NCBI GenBank assembly: GCA_030447415.1
Contig: JAUJOZ010000002.1
Coordinates: 147,351-211,350, forward strand
DNA from: Thermomicrobiales bacterium
Lineage (GTDB): Bacteria; Chloroflexota; Chloroflexia; Thermomicrobiales; UBA6265
DNA: 64,000 nt
Direction of reading: 5' to 3'
Positions 7,031-15,219 of the stretch are shown here, one piece after another. How positions within the stretch are numbered: the first letter of the stretch is position 1; each line of letters starts with the position of its first letter. A model generated the notes under the pieces. That model had not been told where the DNA came from. It was given only the letters and a program-made list of their open reading frames with translations, and made no database searches. The position numbers and the translations under genes are program-made.

Positions 7031-8683
7031 CTAACTCGCCCGTCTGAGAAGTTGCTCTTCAATCACCAGATCCAAGGCGAGCGTTCGATAGCCGACCGTG
7101 TCGAACAGAACCACGACCTTGTCACCCTCATAGCGCATGACGAGACCGTCGCCCCAGGCGCTGTGGACGACGCGGCTGCTGATCGAGAACGGCTGGTCGC
7201 GCTCGTCCGGGGCGATGGGGACCCCGGCATCACAGACGTCGCACGCGCCGCAGGGGGGATCGTAGCGCTCACCGAAGTAGTTCAGCAGGTACTCGCGCCG
7301 GCAACCACCAGCTTCCGCATAGCCGCGCATCATCTCGATCCGTGACCGGGCGAATCGCTGGAGGTTCTCCTGGGTCTTGGCCGCTTCGTTCGCTGCCTCG
7401 CGAAGGTCGTCAGCGCTGGGCGGTCGCTCCTCAGTCGGCACAACCTCGCCACTGGGCAACATCTGCACCACGCCGACCTCTTCCAAACGGCTTAGGGCCG
7501 TCGTGACCTGCGTTGTGGAGAGTTTGATTGCGTCGCCCAACGCCTCCGGACCAAGGGGGCCGCCGTGTGCGTGGACGATGGCGGCCACTCGCTCCGTCTG
7601 GTCGACGTCAATCTGGCCCCCACTCGCGAAGAAGCGGCGGAGGTTGAGGTCCTCAGGGCGGTAAAAGAGGACTGCAGTCGCCGCGTCACCGTCGCGCCCG
7701 GCCCGCCCGATCTCCTGGTAGTAGGAGTCGATGGAATCGCTGATATCGAGGTGGAAGACGAAGCGGACGTTCGGCTTGTCGATCCCCATGCCGAACGCCG
7801 TTGTGGCGACGATTACCTCGACCTCGTCAGCCATGAACGCTTCCTGGACCCGTTCGCGCTCGCGGGCCGTCATGCCCGCATGGTAGGCGACGGCGCGCAC
7901 CCCGCGCTCGTCGAGCGCCGTGGCGACGTCCTCCGCTCGGTTGCGGGTGGCGGCGTAGACGATCCCCGGCTTGTCCGCCGCGGCGACCCGCGTCACGAGT
8001 GCCTCGCGTTTATCGTCCTCGTCCTCGAAGGTTTCGGCTCCGAGCCAGATGTTGGGCCGATCGAACCCCTGCACGACCAGCATTGGCTCCCGCATCCGCA
8101 GCCGTTCGACGATCTCCTCACGCGTCGGTGGAGCGGCGGTCGCGGTGAGCGCTAGCGTCGTCGGGCGCCCGAGCGCCTCGATGACACCGCCGAGCCGCAG
8201 GTACTCCGGCCGGAAGTCGTGCCCCCACTCGCTGATGCAGTGAGCTTCGTCGACGACGAAAAGCGATGGTTGCGCCGCCCGCAGCCGGTCAAGGGTCTCC
8301 TGGTTGGCGAACTGCTCCGGCGCGAGAAACAGGAACTCCAGGCTCCCCTCCCCAAGCTCCGAAAACGCCTCTTCGCGCTCCACCGGCCTGAGGGTGGAGT
8401 TCACCTGCGCCGCCTCGCCGACGTCTAGCTCGTCGATGTTCTCGACTTGGTCCCGCTGGAGCGCGATCAGCGGTGAGACGACAATCGTGGGACCGTCGAG
8501 GAGAGTCGCCGCGATCTGGTAGATCGCCGACTTCCCGGCGCCTGTCGGCAGCACCGCGAGGGTATCCCTTCCCGCGACGACAGCGCGGATTGCTTCCTCC
8601 TGCCCCGGTCGCAAGTCCTCGAAGCCGAACTTCTCCCGCGCGACGCGGCGAATTCGCGCCGCGCCTGGTCGTGTCCCGCCCAC
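7031..8683 (-). CDS. recQ: RecQ-family ATP-dependent DNA helicase
   Basis: PTGAGKS, DEAHCISEWGHDFRPEY, ATTAFGMGIDK, YYQEIGRAGRDG, Zn-binding CRR..CGACDVC. Confidence 0.95.
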   Translation of the reverse strand: MGGTRPGAARIRRVAREKFGFEDLRPGQEEAIRAVVAGRDTLAVLPTGAGKSAIYQIAATLLDGPTIVVSPLIALQRDQVENIDELDVGEAAQVNSTLRPVEREEAFSELGEGSLEFLFLAPEQFANQETLDRLRAAQPSLFVVDEAHCISEWGHDFRPEYLRLGGVIEALGRPTTLALTATAAPPTREEIVERLRMREPMLVVQGFDRPNIWLGAETFEDEDDKREALVTRVAAADKPGIVYAATRNRAEDVATALDERGVRAVAYHAGMTARERERVQEAFMADEVEVIVATTAFGMGIDKPNVRFVFHLDISDSIDSYYQEIGRAGRDGDAATAVLFYRPEDLNLRRFFASGGQIDVDQTERVAAIVHAHGGPLGPEALGDAIKLSTTQVTTALSRLEEVGVVQMLPSGEVVPTEERPPSADDLREAANEAAKTQENLQRFARSRIEMMRGYAEAGGCRREYLLNYFGERYDPPCGACDVCDAGVPIAPDERDQPFSISSRVVHSAWGDGLVMRYEGDKVVVLFDTVGYRTLALDLVIEEQLLRRAS

Positions 8684-8872
8684 GGGGTTCCTTTCTCTGT
8701 CTCTCTGTAGGCATCGCCGCTGAACGGCCCGGAGCCGTTGGTCGGTCGAGGTGATCGCGGAAGCGCAAGGCGGGTTCCACCACAGGAACGGCGAGCTGCG
8801 GTGGACGTGCTGGGAGTGGCACGGGTCATGCCCACGCGGCGGCGACTTGTCGGAGCCGAGAGGGGGACCCGG

Positions 8873-9223
8873 ATGAGATTCGTATCGACCAGGACGCACG
8901 GCATCCTCGACTACCTATCGGTGGGAACGCTGCTCGCCCTGCCGAGACTGCTCGGCTGGAGCAAAGACGTGACCCGGCTGCTTACCGGCGCCGCGGTCGG
9001 CACGCTCGGCTACAGCCTGCTGACACGGTACGAGTTTGGAGCCGTCAAGACGCTGCCGATGCAGGCGCACCTCACCCTGGACGGCATGAGCGGCGCGCTG
9101 CTTTGCGGCGCGCCCCTCCTCTTCCCTGATGAGGACGGAAGCGTCACCGGAGCGCTGGTTGCGCTGGGACTCTTCGAGTTGGGGGCGGCGCTGACGACCG
9201 AGACCGAGCCCAGGACGCTTTGA
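8873..9223 (+). CDS. small membrane protein (SPW-repeat-like)
   Basis: MRFVSTRTHGILDY..YSLLTRYEFG..HLTLD. Confidence 0.7.
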   Translation: MRFVSTRTHGILDYLSVGTLLALPRLLGWSKDVTRLLTGAAVGTLGYSLLTRYEFGAVKTLPMQAHLTLDGMSGALLCGAPLLFPDEDGSVTGALVALGLFELGAALTTETEPRTL

Positions 9224-9853: not shown

Positions 9854-10456
9854 ATGGCCGTGATAGACGATGTCGCCCGCGGTGAGCCGATTGGTCACGT
9901 GATCGACCTGGATCCGGCTTCCATCAACCCCGGTGGGGTGGAGCGGGGACGAGCCGGTGCCGGCCTCACCCGGCGCGACTTCTTCGACGCGGTCGTGGAC
10001 CGCCTACGCGAGGAGCTGCCCGAACCGCGCCGTGCTTTCCAGTACCGGTCCAACCCACTGCTGTTGAAGGTGGACTTCGGAAACCCGCGCGTGCATTACG
10101 AGATTTGGTGCGATGGCGAGCGCCACATCCTCGGGCTCGGGCTCCACTTCGAGGACGGTCCGCTCAGCACGGCGGCGTACCTGACCTACTTTGATCAGCG
10201 CATCGTGGAGCTGAAGCACGAGCTCGGCCCAGCTATCGAGCTCGAGCGCTGGACCGCCTCCTGGGGCCACCTCTACGAGCATTGGCCGCTCGGGACGCTA
10301 ACGGAGGCGCTGGCGGAGCGCGTCGGTCGGCGCCTCGCCCGGCTCATCACGACCTTGCAGCCGCTGGTCGAGGCAGCCGAGATCGCGCGAGAGCGGTCGG
10401 CCTTGGCTCCCGATGGAGCCGAGCGGCGCGGACCGTGGCGAAAGTGGCGGCGGTGA
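9854..10456 (+). CDS. hypothetical protein
   Basis: protein-like ORF, GC3-biased codons; VHYEIW..GLHFEDG..LERWTASWGHLYE. Confidence 0.75.
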   Translation: MAVIDDVARGEPIGHVIDLDPASINPGGVERGRAGAGLTRRDFFDAVVDRLREELPEPRRAFQYRSNPLLLKVDFGNPRVHYEIWCDGERHILGLGLHFEDGPLSTAAYLTYFDQRIVELKHELGPAIELERWTASWGHLYEHWPLGTLTEALAERVGRRLARLITTLQPLVEAAEIARERSALAPDGAERRGPWRKWRR

Positions 10457-10615
10457 TGGCGCCGCACGCCGACGAGCGTCGCACCCATCGAGCACCAATC
10501 CGGACACGGCGTTAGGGCTCCGGCTCTGGTGTCGCATTGTCCGACCCGAGGCCGCCCTTCGCCGAGTTGCGGTGGACGGCGCGGAAGCGGGACGCCGAAC
10601 TGCAGGTCCACCGGC

Positions 10616-11729
10616 TAAGCAGCCTCAGAGAAGTCTTGGACCGGTGCGTGCGGCGGCGGGGGCGGAGGTGCTGCGATGGCCCCCACCCTCGCCCCGTGCG
10701 CCGACGATCTCCGGGGCTGACCCGGACCGACCCCGACCCGCGGGTGCGTCGGCGGGCGCACGCCCTGCTGCTGGTCGCCGAGGGGCGGACCGTGGCCGCG
10801 GTCGCGCGCCTGTTCGAGACGGGGCCGAACCGCATCCCGCGCTTGGCGGGCCCGGTTTCGGCGCGGCGGCCGCCAGGGCCTCGACGACGCGCGCTCCGGT
10901 CGCCCGCCCAAGCCTGAAACGCCGCGGCGCTGGCGTTCCTCGCGGAGGCGCTGGAGGCGAGCCCCCAGGCGCATGGGCTGCCGGTCACGGTCTGGAGCAT
11001 CCGCGACCTGCGCGAGGTGCTGCGGCACGCCTGGGTGTCCGGGTCTGCACCGCGACCGTGCACCGAGCGGTGCAGCGCCGGAACCTCGAGTACCGCCCCC
11101 CCGCCACGACCTGCGGCACCGCCAGGACCAGGAGGCGTCGCGGCGGCCGAGGAGGTCCTGGCGTGGCGGCGAAAGCGTTGGCGCCCCCGGCGAACTCCGC
11201 CTCCGTTTACTTGGACGAGTGGGGTGAGGTCCACCGTCACCGCCTGGCGAAGGTGTGGCAGCGGCGGGGGTGCCCGCGCTGAGGGTGCCGGCCGCCGGGA
11301 GGACGGCAAGTTCGCCGTCTTCGGGGCGCTCGACTACGCCACCGGCCGGCTCGTCTGCCAGACCGCGGAGCACAAGGACGGCGCCGCCTTCGTCGCCTTC
11401 CTCGACCACCTGGCCGCGGCGTTCCCCGACGGGCCGCTGGTCGTGGTCCTGGACAACGTCGGCTACCACAAGGGGCGGCGCGCCAAGGACTGGTGGATGG
11501 CCCAGCAGGACCGGGTCCGCCCGCTGTGGCTGCCCGCCTACGCGCCTGAGCTGAACCTGATCGAGCGCGTCTGGCGTCACCTCAAGGACAAGCTGAGCTG
11601 CTATCGCTGGTGGGCCGACCTGCCGGCGCGGGAGTGGCCGCCGCCGCCCTCCTCGCGGACCGAGGCGCGCTTTCACCAGCCAGACCCGGGCGGCATCGCC
11701 CTGGTCCAGAACTTCTGTCAGGCTGCTTA
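10616..11729 (+). mobile_element. IS630-family insertion sequence (frameshifted transposase)
   Basis: IRs TAAGCAGCCTCAGAGAAGTCTTGGACC / GGTCCAGAACTTCTGTCAGGCTGCTTA with TA ends; DDE motifs YLDE, VVLDNVGYH, LPAYAPELNLIERVW; N-terminal RRRAHALLL HTH. Confidence 0.9.
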
Positions 11730-12532
11730 GGGCGTGTCTGCAAACCCCGCGGCGTAGCGGCCATGTAACGCCGGCCGGCCCGACGTTCGTGTGCGAGCAG
11801 ATCAGATCGCCTCGTTGGTCCGGTCCCGCGTCGTCCGGCGCGCGGGCACCGCGTCCCGGACGTCCTCGCGCGACTTCCACTCCGGTTCGGGCGGCGCGTA
11901 GTCCGGGCGCGGGGCGTAGACCGACCGCTCGACGAAGGCCATCTTGTGGATGTAGCGCGGGCAGTTGGGGAAGATCCGCTCGGCCCGCACCCGCACGATC
12001 AGCTGCGCGCCCGGCAGCTCGGCCAGCAGCGGGTCGTCGTGGACGGTAGCCGTCCCGTTGACGCGCAGGCGGCCGGGCTGCTCGAAGTCGATGAAGAGCA
12101 GCCCGACGTGGGGGTTGACGCGCAGATTGCCGAGGCTGCGGAACATGCCGTTGCCGTCGTAGTCGGGGAAGGCGAGGGTCCGGTCGTCGACGACGCGCAC
12201 GAACCCCGGCAGGCCGCCCTTGTAGGAGCAGTCGGGCCGGCCGGCGGCGTCGGCCGTGGCCAGGAAGAACATCGCGCTACGTTCGAGGAACGCCCGGTCG
12301 CGGTCGGAGAAGATCGCGTGGGCCCGGACCTCGTACAACCGGTCGGCGAGCCGCCGGGTGTCGAATTGGTCCTGCAGCTGCCGCGACCCGGCGTGGTAAC
12401 TATCGTCCTCGGGCATCGCGGGGCCCCTTTCGCGAGGGCGCCTCTGTGAACCGGAGCGGGTCGAGCGGTGCGCCATCGATCCACATCCTAGCATCCCGAT
12501 AGCGCCACGGCTTTGGCTTTGCAGACACGCCC
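11730..12532. mobile_element. non-autonomous IR-bounded passenger cassette (MIC/tIS-like)
   Basis: perfect 15-bp IR GGGCGTGTCTGCAAA / TTTGCAGACACGCCC flanked by TA, enclosing one gene and no transposase. Confidence 0.75.
11802..12416 (-). CDS. pyridoxamine 5'-phosphate oxidase-family FMN-binding protein
   Basis: FFLATADAAGRPDCSYKGGLPGFV, FPDYDGNGMFRSLGN, NCPRYIH. Confidence 0.9.
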   Translation of the reverse strand: MPEDDSYHAGSRQLQDQFDTRRLADRLYEVRAHAIFSDRDRAFLERSAMFFLATADAAGRPDCSYKGGLPGFVRVVDDRTLAFPDYDGNGMFRSLGNLRVNPHVGLLFIDFEQPGRLRVNGTATVHDDPLLAELPGAQLIVRVRAERIFPNCPRYIHKMAFVERSVYAPRPDYAPPEPEWKSREDVRDAVPARRTTRDRTNEAI

Positions 12533-12640
12533 TAGTGGTCCGTCAGCGTTGTTTTGCCACCGCATGATGGCTCGTAGAGGGCGATGCCTCGCCCATTCAT
12601 CGATGGCAGGCATGGCGAATGAGACGTGACGCACCACTAG
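12532..12640. mobile_element. 109-bp MITE-like element, CTAG-bounded
   Basis: CTAGTGGTCCGTCA...TGACGCACCACTAG terminal IR, internal hairpin GGGCGA-TGCC-TCGCCC. Confidence 0.7.
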
Positions 12641-13563
12641 CTCGCCTCGTAGCTCTTGAGGACGAGGGGCTTGGCGCGCTCCAGCTCCTCGTCGGTGTGA
12701 ACCACCACCTCCAGGTCCCCGGTCCCGAAGTGGCCGATCTTGCGCACGTCCCGGGTGAACCCGGGTTCCAGGGCGACAGAGTCCGGATCGACCTTGAGGT
12801 ACAGGCTGATGCGCTTAGCCTGGGGATGAATCTCGACGCACGCGAAGTTCTTGATCCTCCGAAACGCGAAGTAATTCTTGACCGTCTTCAGCTGCACGTC
12901 GTCCCCGAGCGCAAGCATGTACGCCTTGAGGGCTTCGTATCGGTCGCGGACGTCGACGGGCGCTTGAGCGAGCCGATCAACGATCGTGCGGCCGGCGTGG
13001 CCCTTGGAGACGGGCAGAGGGTCCGGTTTCTGGCGTCCTTCCTGGCCACTTCCATCCGGAGCGATGGCATTGACCAGTTCGAGCAAGAGCAACTCCTCGC
13101 CGAACCGGCGGTAGCGGATGAGCTCGATGCTGCGGTTGATCTGCTTGATCGCGTGCTCGTCGTACCGGGTGAAGTCGCCGGCGATGCACAGCAGGCGCGG
13201 GGTGCTCCAGTCGATCTCGGCGGCGGTTGCCTGACCCAAACGATCCATGACGAGCAGCTTGAACTCGCCGCGGTGATCCAGGAGCCAGTCCAAATAGAAC
13301 AGGCCCTGATTGATGACGTTCTGGTTGAGGGCGCGCTTGTACTCGACGATTACCGGGCTGCCGTTCTCGTCGATGCCGAGGGTATCGATCCGGCCGCCGT
13401 GGTTCTTGCCGGTCGGGTGCTCGGAGGCCAGGAAGCGCACGCCGAGGAACGCGTCGAGGTGGCGCTCGATCAGCGCCTGCAGGGACCTTTCGACGGCGAC
13501 CGAAGAGCTCTTGAGCTCCTGGACGGTGCCGCCGGCGAGGTGGAACAGCTTGGCGTCGCTCAT
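12637..13563 (-). CDS. NucS/DUF91-like PD-(D/E)xK nuclease with DUF5655-like C-terminal domain
   Basis: ERSLQALIE..RIDTLGIDENGSPVIVEYKR..QGLFYLDWL; C-terminal RDVRKIGHFGTGDLEV. Confidence 0.8.
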   Translation of the reverse strand: MSDAKLFHLAGGTVQELKSSSVAVERSLQALIERHLDAFLGVRFLASEHPTGKNHGGRIDTLGIDENGSPVIVEYKRALNQNVINQGLFYLDWLLDHRGEFKLLVMDRLGQATAAEIDWSTPRLLCIAGDFTRYDEHAIKQINRSIELIRYRRFGEELLLLELVNAIAPDGSGQEGRQKPDPLPVSKGHAGRTIVDRLAQAPVDVRDRYEALKAYMLALGDDVQLKTVKNYFAFRRIKNFACVEIHPQAKRISLYLKVDPDSVALEPGFTRDVRKIGHFGTGDLEVVVHTDEELERAKPLVLKSYEAS

Positions 13564-13696
13564 GGGCGATCCGCCTGAGCGGCAGGGGACTCAATGGGGA
13601 TCATATGTCCGATGGTAGCATCTCCACGCAAGGCCAAGACCTACCTCCTACCCTAGATCACGGCCATGCTGCGGCCCGCGCCTTTAGTGCGTGCGA

Positions 13697-13807
13697 CTAG
13701 TGGTTCGTCATCCCTGAATTGCCACCCGCCCCGACCGGACTTTAGGCCCTCCGTGGGTGTTCTGTGCTGGACGAAGGGGTGGCAGAACAGCCCTGACCGA
13801 CCACTAG
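13697..13807. mobile_element. 111-bp MITE-like element, CTAG-bounded, same end family as 12532-12640
   Basis: CTAGTGGTTCGTCA..TTGCCAC ... GTGGCAGAACAGCCCTGACCGACCACTAG. Confidence 0.7.
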
Positions 13808-13866
13808 GGCGCCAACTCCGTCCTCTGTGGCCGAGCCACCGTCGTAGAAGACTCGCTCGCGGTGGC

Positions 13867-14622
13867 TCACCCGCACGCGCAGGTCGTGTGGTTCATCGCC
13901 TCGTCGTTCGGGCACGCCTTGGCGCAGTAGGCCATCGCGGGGTCCTTCGTCAGGCAGACCTCCCCGCCGCTCGGGCAGACGCAGCTCTCAGGCTCGAAGC
14001 TCGAACACACGGCGCCGCCCACGCATGTCGTTTCGCCGCAGCGGCAGGAGCAGTCGTCCGCCCGCCTGCCCCCCTCGCCGCACGGTGGGAGGCAGGCGCC
14101 GCCGCAACGGTCTTCGTTGGCGCAGCACGCGCCCTCCGCCACGCATTGGCCGTCGCGGCAGCGCCGCTCTCCCGCCTCGCACTCGTCGCAGGGCGCATCG
14201 ACGCCAGGCACTTCGAAGTACCCGACGCAGAGGTCGGAGCACGGGAGGTCGGGCAACTGGCTCACCAGGGCGCACACGGCCACCGACGCGGCCGCGCACC
14301 CAAGGCCGAATACAGTGCACGCTGGCGTCGCTTCGACCCCGGCGGCGCACGCCGCGTTCCCTCCCGTTTGGACGGCGTCGCTCGCCGTCTCGCACAGGCG
14401 CAAGCAACGGTTGCAGGAGAAGTCGGGCAGATCGGGCCAATCGGGCAGATCGGGCCAATCGGGCAGGTTCACGTCGATGGGGAACGCGGCGGCCGCCTCG
14501 CGTTTCGACGCGACGTTGAGGCCGATGAGAGCCAACGCCCCGCCACCGACGAGCTTGAGAATCCTTCGGCGCGGCGTCGCCGCGAGGCGGCGTGCGAAAT
14601 CGTCAAACGTGTCGTTCTGCAC
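13867..14622 (-). CDS. Tat-type secreted cysteine-rich protein
   Basis: GGAGG RBS + GTG; FDDFARRLAATPRRRILKLVGG leader; PDW/PDL repeats; many Cys. Confidence 0.7.
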   Translation of the reverse strand: MQNDTFDDFARRLAATPRRRILKLVGGGALALIGLNVASKREAAAAFPIDVNLPDWPDLPDWPDLPDFSCNRCLRLCETASDAVQTGGNAACAAGVEATPACTVFGLGCAAASVAVCALVSQLPDLPCSDLCVGYFEVPGVDAPCDECEAGERRCRDGQCVAEGACCANEDRCGGACLPPCGEGGRRADDCSCRCGETTCVGGAVCSSFEPESCVCPSGGEVCLTKDPAMAYCAKACPNDEAMNHTTCACG

Positions 14623-14961
14623 GTCAGCGCCTCCTCGACTGGTCGGAAGTGAGCGCAGAGAGGAGCAGGTCACTGCAAGACGGGCTATTTGCTTGGCGTG
14701 ACGGCCATCGGCGACCCTACCACATCGAACGATCTTGTCAATCGGCGTGCGGCGCTCTGAGATTCGTCTTTCGGTGGCTGCGATGACGTGACCAACCAGC
14801 GTCGCAAGGCGGCGCGCGCTCGTCGGGGCTCCACCCCCGTCGCAACGTTGCGAGAGCCGTCGACTGGCCGCAACCACATCCCCGCTCGGAGGGAAGGCAA
14901 GCCGTCGGGTCCCTGCCCGACCGTTCGCGCTCCGTGTTGCCGCAGGCCGCCCCGACGTACC

Positions 14962-14978
14962 GGTTTGCGGACACGCCC
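14962..14978. repeat. third copy of the GGGCGTGTCYGCAAA element end
   Basis: GGTTTGCGGACACGCCC is a 16/17 inverted match to 11730-11746. Confidence 0.7.
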
Positions 14979-15197
14979 TGGTCGCGCCAGCGCCTCCCAA
15001 TGTCGCCCATGCGGCACCTTCTGACCCCGGCGCACGAACGAGCAGTACCCCTCGGATAGACCGGTCGCCTGGGCCATCGCGCGGAGCGGCACGCCCAGCA
15101 ATCGGGGGAGGATGTCGCGGGCAAAGGCCGCCAGGTCGGTCGGTTCGTCGCCGTGCTCCCGCTCCCACCGGGCGGCGACGGCGACGACGCGGCCCCC
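14979..15197 (-). pseudogene. HTH-domain gene relic
   Basis: RWEREHGDEPTDLAAFARDILPRLLGVPLRAMAQATGLSEGYCSFVRRGQKVPHGRHWEALAR, cut by the IR; no clear start. Confidence 0.55.
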
Positions 15198-15219
15198 GCA
15201 CTCAAAACGTTTTGAGTGC
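15198..15219. repeat. 22-bp perfect palindrome, copy 1
   Basis: GCACTCAAAACGTTTTGAGTGC. Confidence 0.9.

Follow-up and report, generated by a model that had tools for sequence, protein, structure and literature searches.

What are the two short elements that frame a nuclease gene in this Thermomicrobiales genome, how did they come to stand on either side of it, and what sets their length? The locus lies in a stretch of 64,000 nucleotides (nt), here called the window, which corresponds to C108:147351–211350 (contig and positions) of a 5.23-Mb soil genome assembly made up of 125 contigs, with 69.5% GC and an estimated 86% completeness and 6% contamination. An initial annotation had placed two inverted, CTAG-bounded elements of 109 and 111 base pairs (bp) around a DUF5655/NucS-like gene, and both elements are present there. 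We are confident, short of certainty, that these units are miniature transposable elements bearing inverted repeats (MITEs) of the IS630/Tc1-mariner type, arranged as an inverted pair; a transposase would serve them in trans, and their lengths would be in phase with the DNA helix. The locus is composed of the following parts, in which MITE denotes this probable assignment:

12532–12640, + strand: left MITE, 109 bp if the terminal CTAGs are counted, with the shared ends, a repeat of its own and diverged copies.

12637–13563, − strand: nuclease gene, 308 amino acids (aa), with DUF5655, a NucS-like core and a PDC-S18 match.

13564–13696, − strand: region 5′ of the nuclease gene, 133 bp, from the start codon to the right MITE.

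13697–13807, − strand: right MITE, 111 bp, inverted relative to the left MITE, with its own terminal inverted repeat (TIR).

The window contains four exact copies of CTAGTGGTNNGTCA, at 12532 (+), 12640 (−), 13697 (+) and 13807 (−); when up to two mismatches are allowed there are seven matches compared with 1.82 expected, and none of 100 shuffles reaches seven. We label the outer and inner ends of the left element A and B, and those of the right element D and C. All four are identical at the 12 specified bases and are flanked by TA within CTAG; on the left, the TA dinucleotides at 12533–12534 and 12638–12639 enclose an element proper of approximately 12535–12637. The TIR of the left MITE is 14 nt long (93%) and that of the right MITE 31 nt (74%), whereas the outer ends A and D form an inverted repeat of 34 nt (88%, four flank bases included). 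Ungapped comparison gives the same ranking, with 27 of 32 positions shared by A and D, as against 21 of 32 for A–B and 23 of 32 for C–D, so that the outermost ends are indeed the best matched, as the initial annotation had it. The interiors of the two elements cannot be aligned: a global alignment yields 75 identities over 120–121 columns in either orientation, mostly at the ends. Neither MITE contains an open reading frame of 50 aa or more. With DNA parameters, the left MITE is predicted to fold into one long hairpin (−26.0 kcal/mol) and the right MITE into a hairpin (−21.7 kcal/mol); both hairpins are imperfect, and any TIR-bearing element folds in this way. The 133-bp region upstream of the nuclease gene holds a further CTAG (13654–13657) that is free of insertion, and no sigma-70-type promoter or intrinsic terminator consensus was found in 12400–13900.

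The left MITE has full-length, diverged relatives at C79:396786–396900 (81%) and C76:91252–91352 (75%), in which the interior is conserved. Thus, the free interiors noted at first hold between the two window elements and not within the left subfamily. C43 carries a further 34-nt match to the left MITE end. Four runs, X2–X5, were compared as assembled contigs, from which rare variants are dropped; X4 and X5 are contigs from two other studies, in which the nuclease gene and both MITEs are uncovered, and they are evidence neither for nor against. In X2, another left-type copy (record 5) has eight differences and other flanks, and the core of the right MITE (13698–13781) reaches a depth of 25.7, where its surroundings have 13–14, and is seen in two contexts on its left and two on its right. 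Left-type and right-type MITEs both occur in several contexts, and their copy number is low. Separately, X2 and X3 contain a variant at 13698, where the right MITE's inner end abuts an insertion sequence (IS) end like that of C121:28208 in place of the upstream region of the nuclease gene; one X2 left context of the right MITE is the 27-nt end of a C121:28208-like IS, and in X3 the variant with such an end runs on into the right flank of the window. This variant is either a second MITE copy or, in part of the population, an IS inserted at that TA.

Genome-wide, the MITE termini (at one mismatch or fewer) delimit seven elements of 1,225–1,261 bp, and the transposase regions of five of the seven are among the 32 DDE_3 matches of this genome. 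The closest IS, C85:77326–78559, is 1,234 bp long, has a DDE_3 match of 3.9e-24 and ends in CTAGTGGTTCGTCA and CTAGTGGTCCGTCA; it is the sole copy scanned for the helix-turn-helix N-terminal part, which is present. A and D match its transposase-5′ end at 23 and 22 of 32 positions and its 3′ end at 17 of 32 each, and in sequence these outer ends resemble the IRL-type (transposase-5′) end of their parent IS. Each ~110-bp unit thus has the look of an IS of which just the two ends are left, and the two units stand head to head, IRL-type ends facing outward. Plasmid-borne relatives of the transposase bear the annotation ‘IS630 family transposase’; the best of them (61% at the aa level) is on an Isosphaeraceae (Planctomycetota) plasmid and is bounded by TAGTAGATCGTCA and TAGTGGTCTGTCA, 1,228 bp apart. 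A MITE was one of two possibilities that the initial annotation had raised, and it is borne out by ends that are those of the resident IS630 elements and of the annotated Planctomycetota plasmid IS630. IS630 reportedly inserts at the TA of 5′-CTAG-3′ (a finding of Tenzen and Ohtsubo from 1991). CTAG is depleted in the genome studied here, with 3,401 sites, or 0.23 of expectation. ISY100 and IS630-family elements duplicate TA, according to PMC2170065.

The MITEs have ~30-bp TIRs that begin GTGGTNNGTCA and are flanked by the TA of the CTAG target. In the mechanism that we propose, the DDE_3 transposases encoded by the resident 1.23–1.26-kb IS630 copies would mobilize them in trans, as the similarity of the ends suggests. 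The left MITE would have inserted at the TA of the TAG stop of the nuclease gene, which would also have been the terminal CTAG of a neighbouring IS5-type cassette. The 1,276-bp MITE–gene–MITE unit could be moved by an IS630 transposase through its two outer ends, and the bound ends of such short DNA would synapse only in the right helical phase.

Among the IS630 copies themselves, C64:80514–81772, C85:11237–12496, C89:2942–4202 and C111:47978–49233 are near-identical members of this first IS630 family with small frame-shifting indels at differing places, which are either decay or assembly errors; a 24-nt duplication (LADELVR LADELVR in translation) is present as well. Two single genes, a NIF3-family gene (C64:81769–82764) and an alpha/beta hydrolase gene (C70:84625–86012), lie between IS630-type or mixed end-like motifs; these units adjoin full IS copies, and the motif matches, at only 13 of 14 nt, may be due to chance.

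The length of the elements was compared across phyla in two sets, and the counts and statistics that follow are among the matches listed. Set 1, defined as CTAGTGGTNNGTCA-N66–96-TGACNNACCACTAG with one genome per species, contains at least 118 stretches; set 2, a metagenome scan with N96–126, contains at least 121. By name, the 80 titled entries of set 1 are from Cyanobacteria (51), Planctomycetota (16), Chloroflexota (8), Streptosporangiaceae (1) and others (4). Lengths in set 1 are trimodal, with 31 elements at 97–101 bp, 49 at 108–112 bp, 29 at 119–123 bp and 9 elsewhere; in set 2 there are 77 at 130–134 bp, 13 at 141–143 bp and 14 at 148–154 bp, and none at 138–140 or 144–147 bp. After dereplication of set 1 by average linkage (65 to 29 clusters), R is 0.56–0.61 at 10.5 bp, which 0 of 2,000 nulls reach. 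For both sets combined (239 exact-ended elements), the best period is 10.90 bp, with R of 0.51 when 118 clusters are kept and 0.48 when 63 are; none of 400 nulls reaches either value. The predicted peaks are then at 98.9, 109.8, 120.7, 131.6, 142.5 and 153.4 bp, and 83 of the 118 clusters lie within 2 bp of one, compared with 54 expected. Cyanobacteria, Planctomycetota and Chloroflexota each show the same peaks (tally of set 1). The interiors of elements sharing these ends across phyla are unrelated, and across 478 ends conservation extends past the fixed 14 nt to position ~31 (T19, A21, T24, G28–T31) and is then gone. A conserved length with conserved ends and a free interior, which had been read from the window pair, is general across phyla, in the form of a 10.9-bp period; inside the left MITE subfamily the interior is not free. 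Among 301 sampled cyanobacterial genomes there are 9 elements of 99–109 bp and 0 of 124–154 bp, too few to weigh, and viral contigs hold 0 elements with these ends.

Once the C-TA and TA-G are removed, the elements measure about 93, 104, 115 bp and so on, that is, 9, 10, 11 and more helical turns. In DNA below the persistence length, two transposase-bound ends would meet only in the right rotational phase. A precedent is the length and twist dependence of IS50, reportedly described by Goryshin, Kil and Reznikoff in 1994. We infer that a helical-phase constraint on the synapsis of the ends sets the lengths. The general form of this proposal, to which we give an even chance, is that the DNA helix quantises the lengths of IS630-subgroup MITEs from at least five phyla, which share only ~31 bp at each end, so that they occur almost exclusively near 99, 110, 121, 132, 142 and 153 bp (about 9–14 turns). 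The two window elements, unrelated in their interiors and measuring 109 and 111 bp, both belong to the ~110-bp peak, and we do not regard their near-equal size as coincidence; under helix quantisation they would be two independent samples of a ‘10-turn’ class, for which we likewise see the arguments as balanced. In the literature searched we found no report of length periodicity in bacterial MITEs, the ciliate case discussed below being the only one.

The gene between the MITEs is, on sequence comparison, a single-gene candidate defence nuclease of the PDC-S18 type. The PADLOC model PDC-S18 (PDLC04946) matches with an E value of 6.1e-146, residues 1–307 aligning to profile positions 18–322 of 365; PDC is presumably ‘phage defence candidate’, and the name PDC-S18 is not mentioned in the literature searched. 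Pfam DUF5655 matches at 3.5e-11 (43.6 bits, cut-off 24) and Pfam NucS_C falls below its cut-off (4.2e-4, 20.7 versus 24 bits). The protein has an N-terminal NucS-like PD-(D/E)xK core and a C-terminal DUF5655 domain, and a candidate catalytic motif, D60/D64 … E74-x-K76, can be read from the translation in the NucS-like stretch. Resemblance to NucS proper is weak (NCBIfam NucS 18.5 bits compared with cut-offs of 216–252; Protein Data Bank entry 2vld, E 0.57). We rejected a true NucS, as the scores are below the family cut-offs and the resemblance is confined to the nuclease core; the suggestion of a PD-(D/E)xK nuclease with a possible defence role stands at candidate level. The stop codon of the gene, TAG, coincides with the CTAG that closes the left MITE on its inner side. 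The gene is present once in the assembly, and the GC content between the MITEs is 63.7% compared with about 70% in the flanks. The 40 nearest genomes, every one from another genus, served as relatives, and 12 of the 40 match some part of the query. Nuclease homologues in relatives are 43–68% identical in aa over the stretches compared (six loci examined); these six loci have neither end type and no shared neighbours, and no orthologous site, empty or filled, was found among them.

The MITE pair adjoins a series of other mobile elements:

10615–11728, + strand: second IS630-family IS (‘F3’), with ends AGCAGCCTSASAGAAGTYYTGGACC and a DDE_3 match (5.1e-26).

11728–12534, − strand: IS5-family-type passenger cassette, 807 bp, with inverted TAGGGCGTGTCTGCAAA ends.

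11802–12494, − strand: PNPOx-like gene, the only gene of this cassette (Pfam PNPOx_N, 1.5e-18).

14963–14980, − strand: solo IS5-type end, CAGGGCGTGTCCGCAAAC.

The right end of the passenger cassette shares its CTAG with the left MITE. X4 and X5 contigs carry the PNPOx cassette at 90–99% likeness, with matches beginning at 11728; one X4 contig ends at 12535, and the flanks differ, including two different left flanks within X4. The PNPOx cassette thus occurs as a distinct unit in more than one context. Its ends are those of transposase-bearing copies, yet it holds the passenger gene alone. Genome-wide, IS5-type ends give 74 matches at three mismatches or fewer and 20 facing pairs of 146–1,885 bp. 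The content scan covered the five longest open frames of each of 15 of the 20 pairs and of 5 other loci. DUF4096 or DDE_Tnp_1, which are IS4/IS5-type transposase parts, occur in four pairs, namely C111:49231–50084 (854 bp), two copies of a 1.82-kb family and C98:2854–4738; the 1.82-kb family adds an alpha/beta-hydrolase gene (at least three copies) and C98 an APH-type kinase gene. Seven further pairs are passenger-only (two methyltransferases, a cupin, a GDPD, a glyoxalase-like protein, a GNAT and an ABC-2 membrane protein), three scanned pairs are without any Pfam match, and three pairs of 146–147 bp, outside the content scan, are MITE-sized. No autonomous IS for the IS5-type ends was found among the DDE_3 loci, because these ends belong to DUF4096/DDE_Tnp_1 elements. 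As a side observation, units with this one end type (TAGGGCGTGTCYGCAAAC, flanked by YTAG) and varied contents are found, beside 11728–12534 in the window, on C40, C42, C56, C72, C74, C75, C76, C79, C98, C99, C106, C111 and C121. They look like diversified mobile insertion cassettes within one genome.

F3 is inserted at the CTAG of the left end of the cassette, with TA at 10613–10614 and 11729–11730. The genome holds about 13 copies of F3 at roughly 94–96% identity. Of the 27 recognisable F3 ends, 11 abut the end of another element (9 IS5-type, 2 belonging to the first IS630 family), always after cTA, a strong preference for terminal CTAGs. Two IS5-type ends likewise enclose the left-MITE relative on C79. 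In this genome, the CTAGs at which resident elements end are thus hot spots for insertions of the IS630 type. On the other side of the locus, a weak TAGGGCG at 13805–13811, directly right of the right MITE, is a possible partner of the solo end at 14963–14980; the pairing is uncertain, with 7 nt shared and a unit without any Pfam match. Between the right MITE and the solo end we also observe an open frame, 13867–15201 (−), with a C-terminal part very rich in Cys, for which Pfam, NCBIfam and PADLOC give no match. Further left, a 200-aa gene of no known family (9854–10456, +) lies convergently downstream of a RecQ-like helicase open reading frame (7031–8899, −); the 200-aa gene has diverged DNA relatives on C112 and C79 (74–78%).

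How the pair came to frame the gene can be read in several ways. Integron attC sites form imperfect hairpins of ~60–140 bp with conserved ends and free interiors at gene 3′ ends, and the initial annotation had entertained such a structure-defined recombination site for the window elements, each of which does fold as an imperfect hairpin; their lengths are similar, their interiors differ, and one end sits at the 3′ end of the gene. However, the integron integrase model TIGR02249 gives 14 weak matches in the whole genome (86% complete), the best at 63.6 bits compared with a cut-off of 265, and a GTTRRRY core is absent from either strand of either element. Rfam, like other structured-RNA searches, returns nothing on the MITEs (a single chance-level match, E 0.93, falls within the PNPOx gene), and a literature search on the terminal motif returned unrelated primers only. 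An attC system depends on IntI, on R/L core sites and on a single site for each cassette, all facing the same way, and every one of these features is missing here: the ends equal those of DDE transposon copies, and the elements stand inverted on both sides of the gene instead of one per 3′ end. An integron-type cassette system is thus scarcely credible, and attC-like sites were rejected. Across phyla, 18 of 149 ends (12%) at MITE loci L034–L151 coincide with the TAG stop of a frame of at least 100 codons, compared with 9 of 298 in the other two frames, a fourfold rate. Stop-restoring insertion into C-TAG stop codons seems to be common in this MITE group. A second alternative takes the whole of 12532–13807 as a single IS630 derivative in which the nuclease gene replaced the transposase gene and the inner ends are secondary. 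Its length of 1,276 bp is near the 1,225–1,261 bp of the parent IS, its outer TIR pair matches best, and a different IS family has passenger-only cassettes in this genome; but replacement of a transposase gene would not make two extra ends. The termini B and C are complete and each has a CTAG facing the gene, and the ~110-bp units are whole MITEs, the left one with full-length relatives elsewhere. We regard this derivative as very improbable. A composite transposon that moved whole, into the terminal CTAG of the IS5-type cassette, is a more serious candidate, although we lean against it. The outer ends are the best matched and both IRL-type; the bases outside them are palindromic (CGCC|CTAG … CTAG|GGCG), as for a single insertion into a CGCCCTAGGGCG-like site; the left flank is a true IS5-type end, a favoured kind of site; the GC content drops between the MITEs; the homologues in relatives lack such flanks and show no synteny; and there are precedents in an IS630 composite transposon and in MITE-flanked integrons. 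Against this, the gene is single-copy in the assembly, the gene region in X2 and X3 shows only the context of the window, and no joint skips the unit (in contigs, from which rare variants may be lost). Each MITE also occurs alone in other contexts, and the stop codon falls exactly in the inner CTAG, which fits insertion of a MITE at the C-TAG stop of a resident gene, with the stop regenerated; the share of ends at TAG stops across phyla also speaks for separate insertions. As TA is present at all four ends, target duplications cannot separate one event from two. An inverted, related pair with usable outer ends was found, and a second location or an empty site was not; the composite transposon suggested initially therefore holds as an architecture and not as a record of movement. 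Separate insertion of the two MITEs at CTAG hot spots, one of them next to an IS5-type cassette end, is at least as probable as movement of the unit, and in our estimate somewhat more so.

The assignment to IS630-type MITEs mobilized in trans, and the helical explanation of their length, also have points against them. The inner ends B and C are not assignable to the IRR type (22 versus 22 and 22 versus 21 of 32), the assembly contains no further copy of the right MITE, and no empty site, excision joint or circle was found in the run contigs for either MITE or for the pair, an empty site being what would prove TA duplication. The case for mobilization in trans is built on end similarity, and many IS copies are frameshifted. 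With respect to length, both sets comprise exact ends and listed matches only. Set 2 on its own (124–154 bp) is weaker, with R of 0.32–0.38 at 11.1 bp (p 0.005–0.03), or p 0.013–0.16 over all periods, and in five MITE-rich genomes elements outside 94–124 bp measure 90 bp (at the edge of a peak) and 126 bp (off-peak). Quantised lengths could instead arise from descent, through a few old lineages of fixed length, or from tandem duplication of an ~11–13-bp inner TIR motif, with no role for geometry. Related elements do differ by such steps, as in L066 (110 bp) and L082 (98 bp), which differ by a duplicated ATTTTGTRAGTT-like motif, and a direct repeat offset by 9–15 bp is seen in 21% of the 121-bp class. 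In the other classes, however, such repeats reach only 0–8%; the peaks persist when elements are clustered down to 55% identity (the 63 clusters above), and they recur in each of the three phyla. We consider descent or duplication unlikely to account for the peaks.

Several known systems are close to this locus. A composite transposon of IS630, in which two copies can move the DNA between them, was reportedly described by Tenzen et al. in 1990; its flanking copies are full ISs, whereas here they are 110-bp MITEs, and only the composite architecture is shared. In mobile insertion cassettes (MIC231 of Bacillus cereus) and the transporter ISs (‘tIS’) of ISfinder, IS inverted repeats bracket passengers. 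The neighbouring IS5-type cassettes of the window are alike in this respect, with a passenger with or without a transposase, but the nuclease unit has four ends, not two. Nezha, a MITE of Anabaena and Nostoc, has TIRs in common with ISNpu3 and is ~130–170 bp long (PMC3184786). Like such Nezha-like IS630/Tc1-mariner MITEs, the window elements are short and non-coding, have IS630-like TIRs and a TA target, form a stable hairpin and would be moved in trans; the likeness is one of description, and the elements here differ in being 109 and 111 bp long, in a soil genome with 69.5% GC, and in forming an inverted pair around one gene. In MITE-flanked class 1 integrons, and in the case of blaPER-1 of Acinetobacter, the cargo lies between two MITE copies that are thought to move it (PMC10969869); there, according to Figure 3 of that review, the MITE copies are identical, whereas here the ends alone are shared and the cargo is one candidate defence gene. 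Finally, the short TA-bounded internal eliminated sequences (IESs) of the ciliates Paramecium and Blepharisma show length peaks every 10–11 bp up to ~110 bp, which PMC9942856 ascribes to geometric constraints imposed by the excisase complex on the DNA helix. IESs belong to eukaryotic programmed elimination by a domesticated excisase, whereas the elements described here are MITEs found in bacteria, belong to an IS630 subgroup and peak at lengths between ~99 and ~153 bp.

The locus is thus a clear example of a candidate defence gene framed by IS630-type MITEs, in a genome where transposons pile onto CTAG ends, and a MITE-framed single gene is a plausible route to the portability of single defence genes. 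The locus itself belongs to a known kind, and the length rule is the part worth following. If true, quantisation at 10.9 bp would be a physical rule on which MITEs can exist and would explain why unrelated MITEs have the same sizes. It would offer a length-and-ends signature for annotating such elements in any phylum, and a simple bench system for the geometry of synapsis in the Tc1/mariner superfamily. It would also be a prokaryotic counterpart of the periodicity of ciliate IESs and a natural read-out of the helical repeat of DNA in vivo (10.9 bp).

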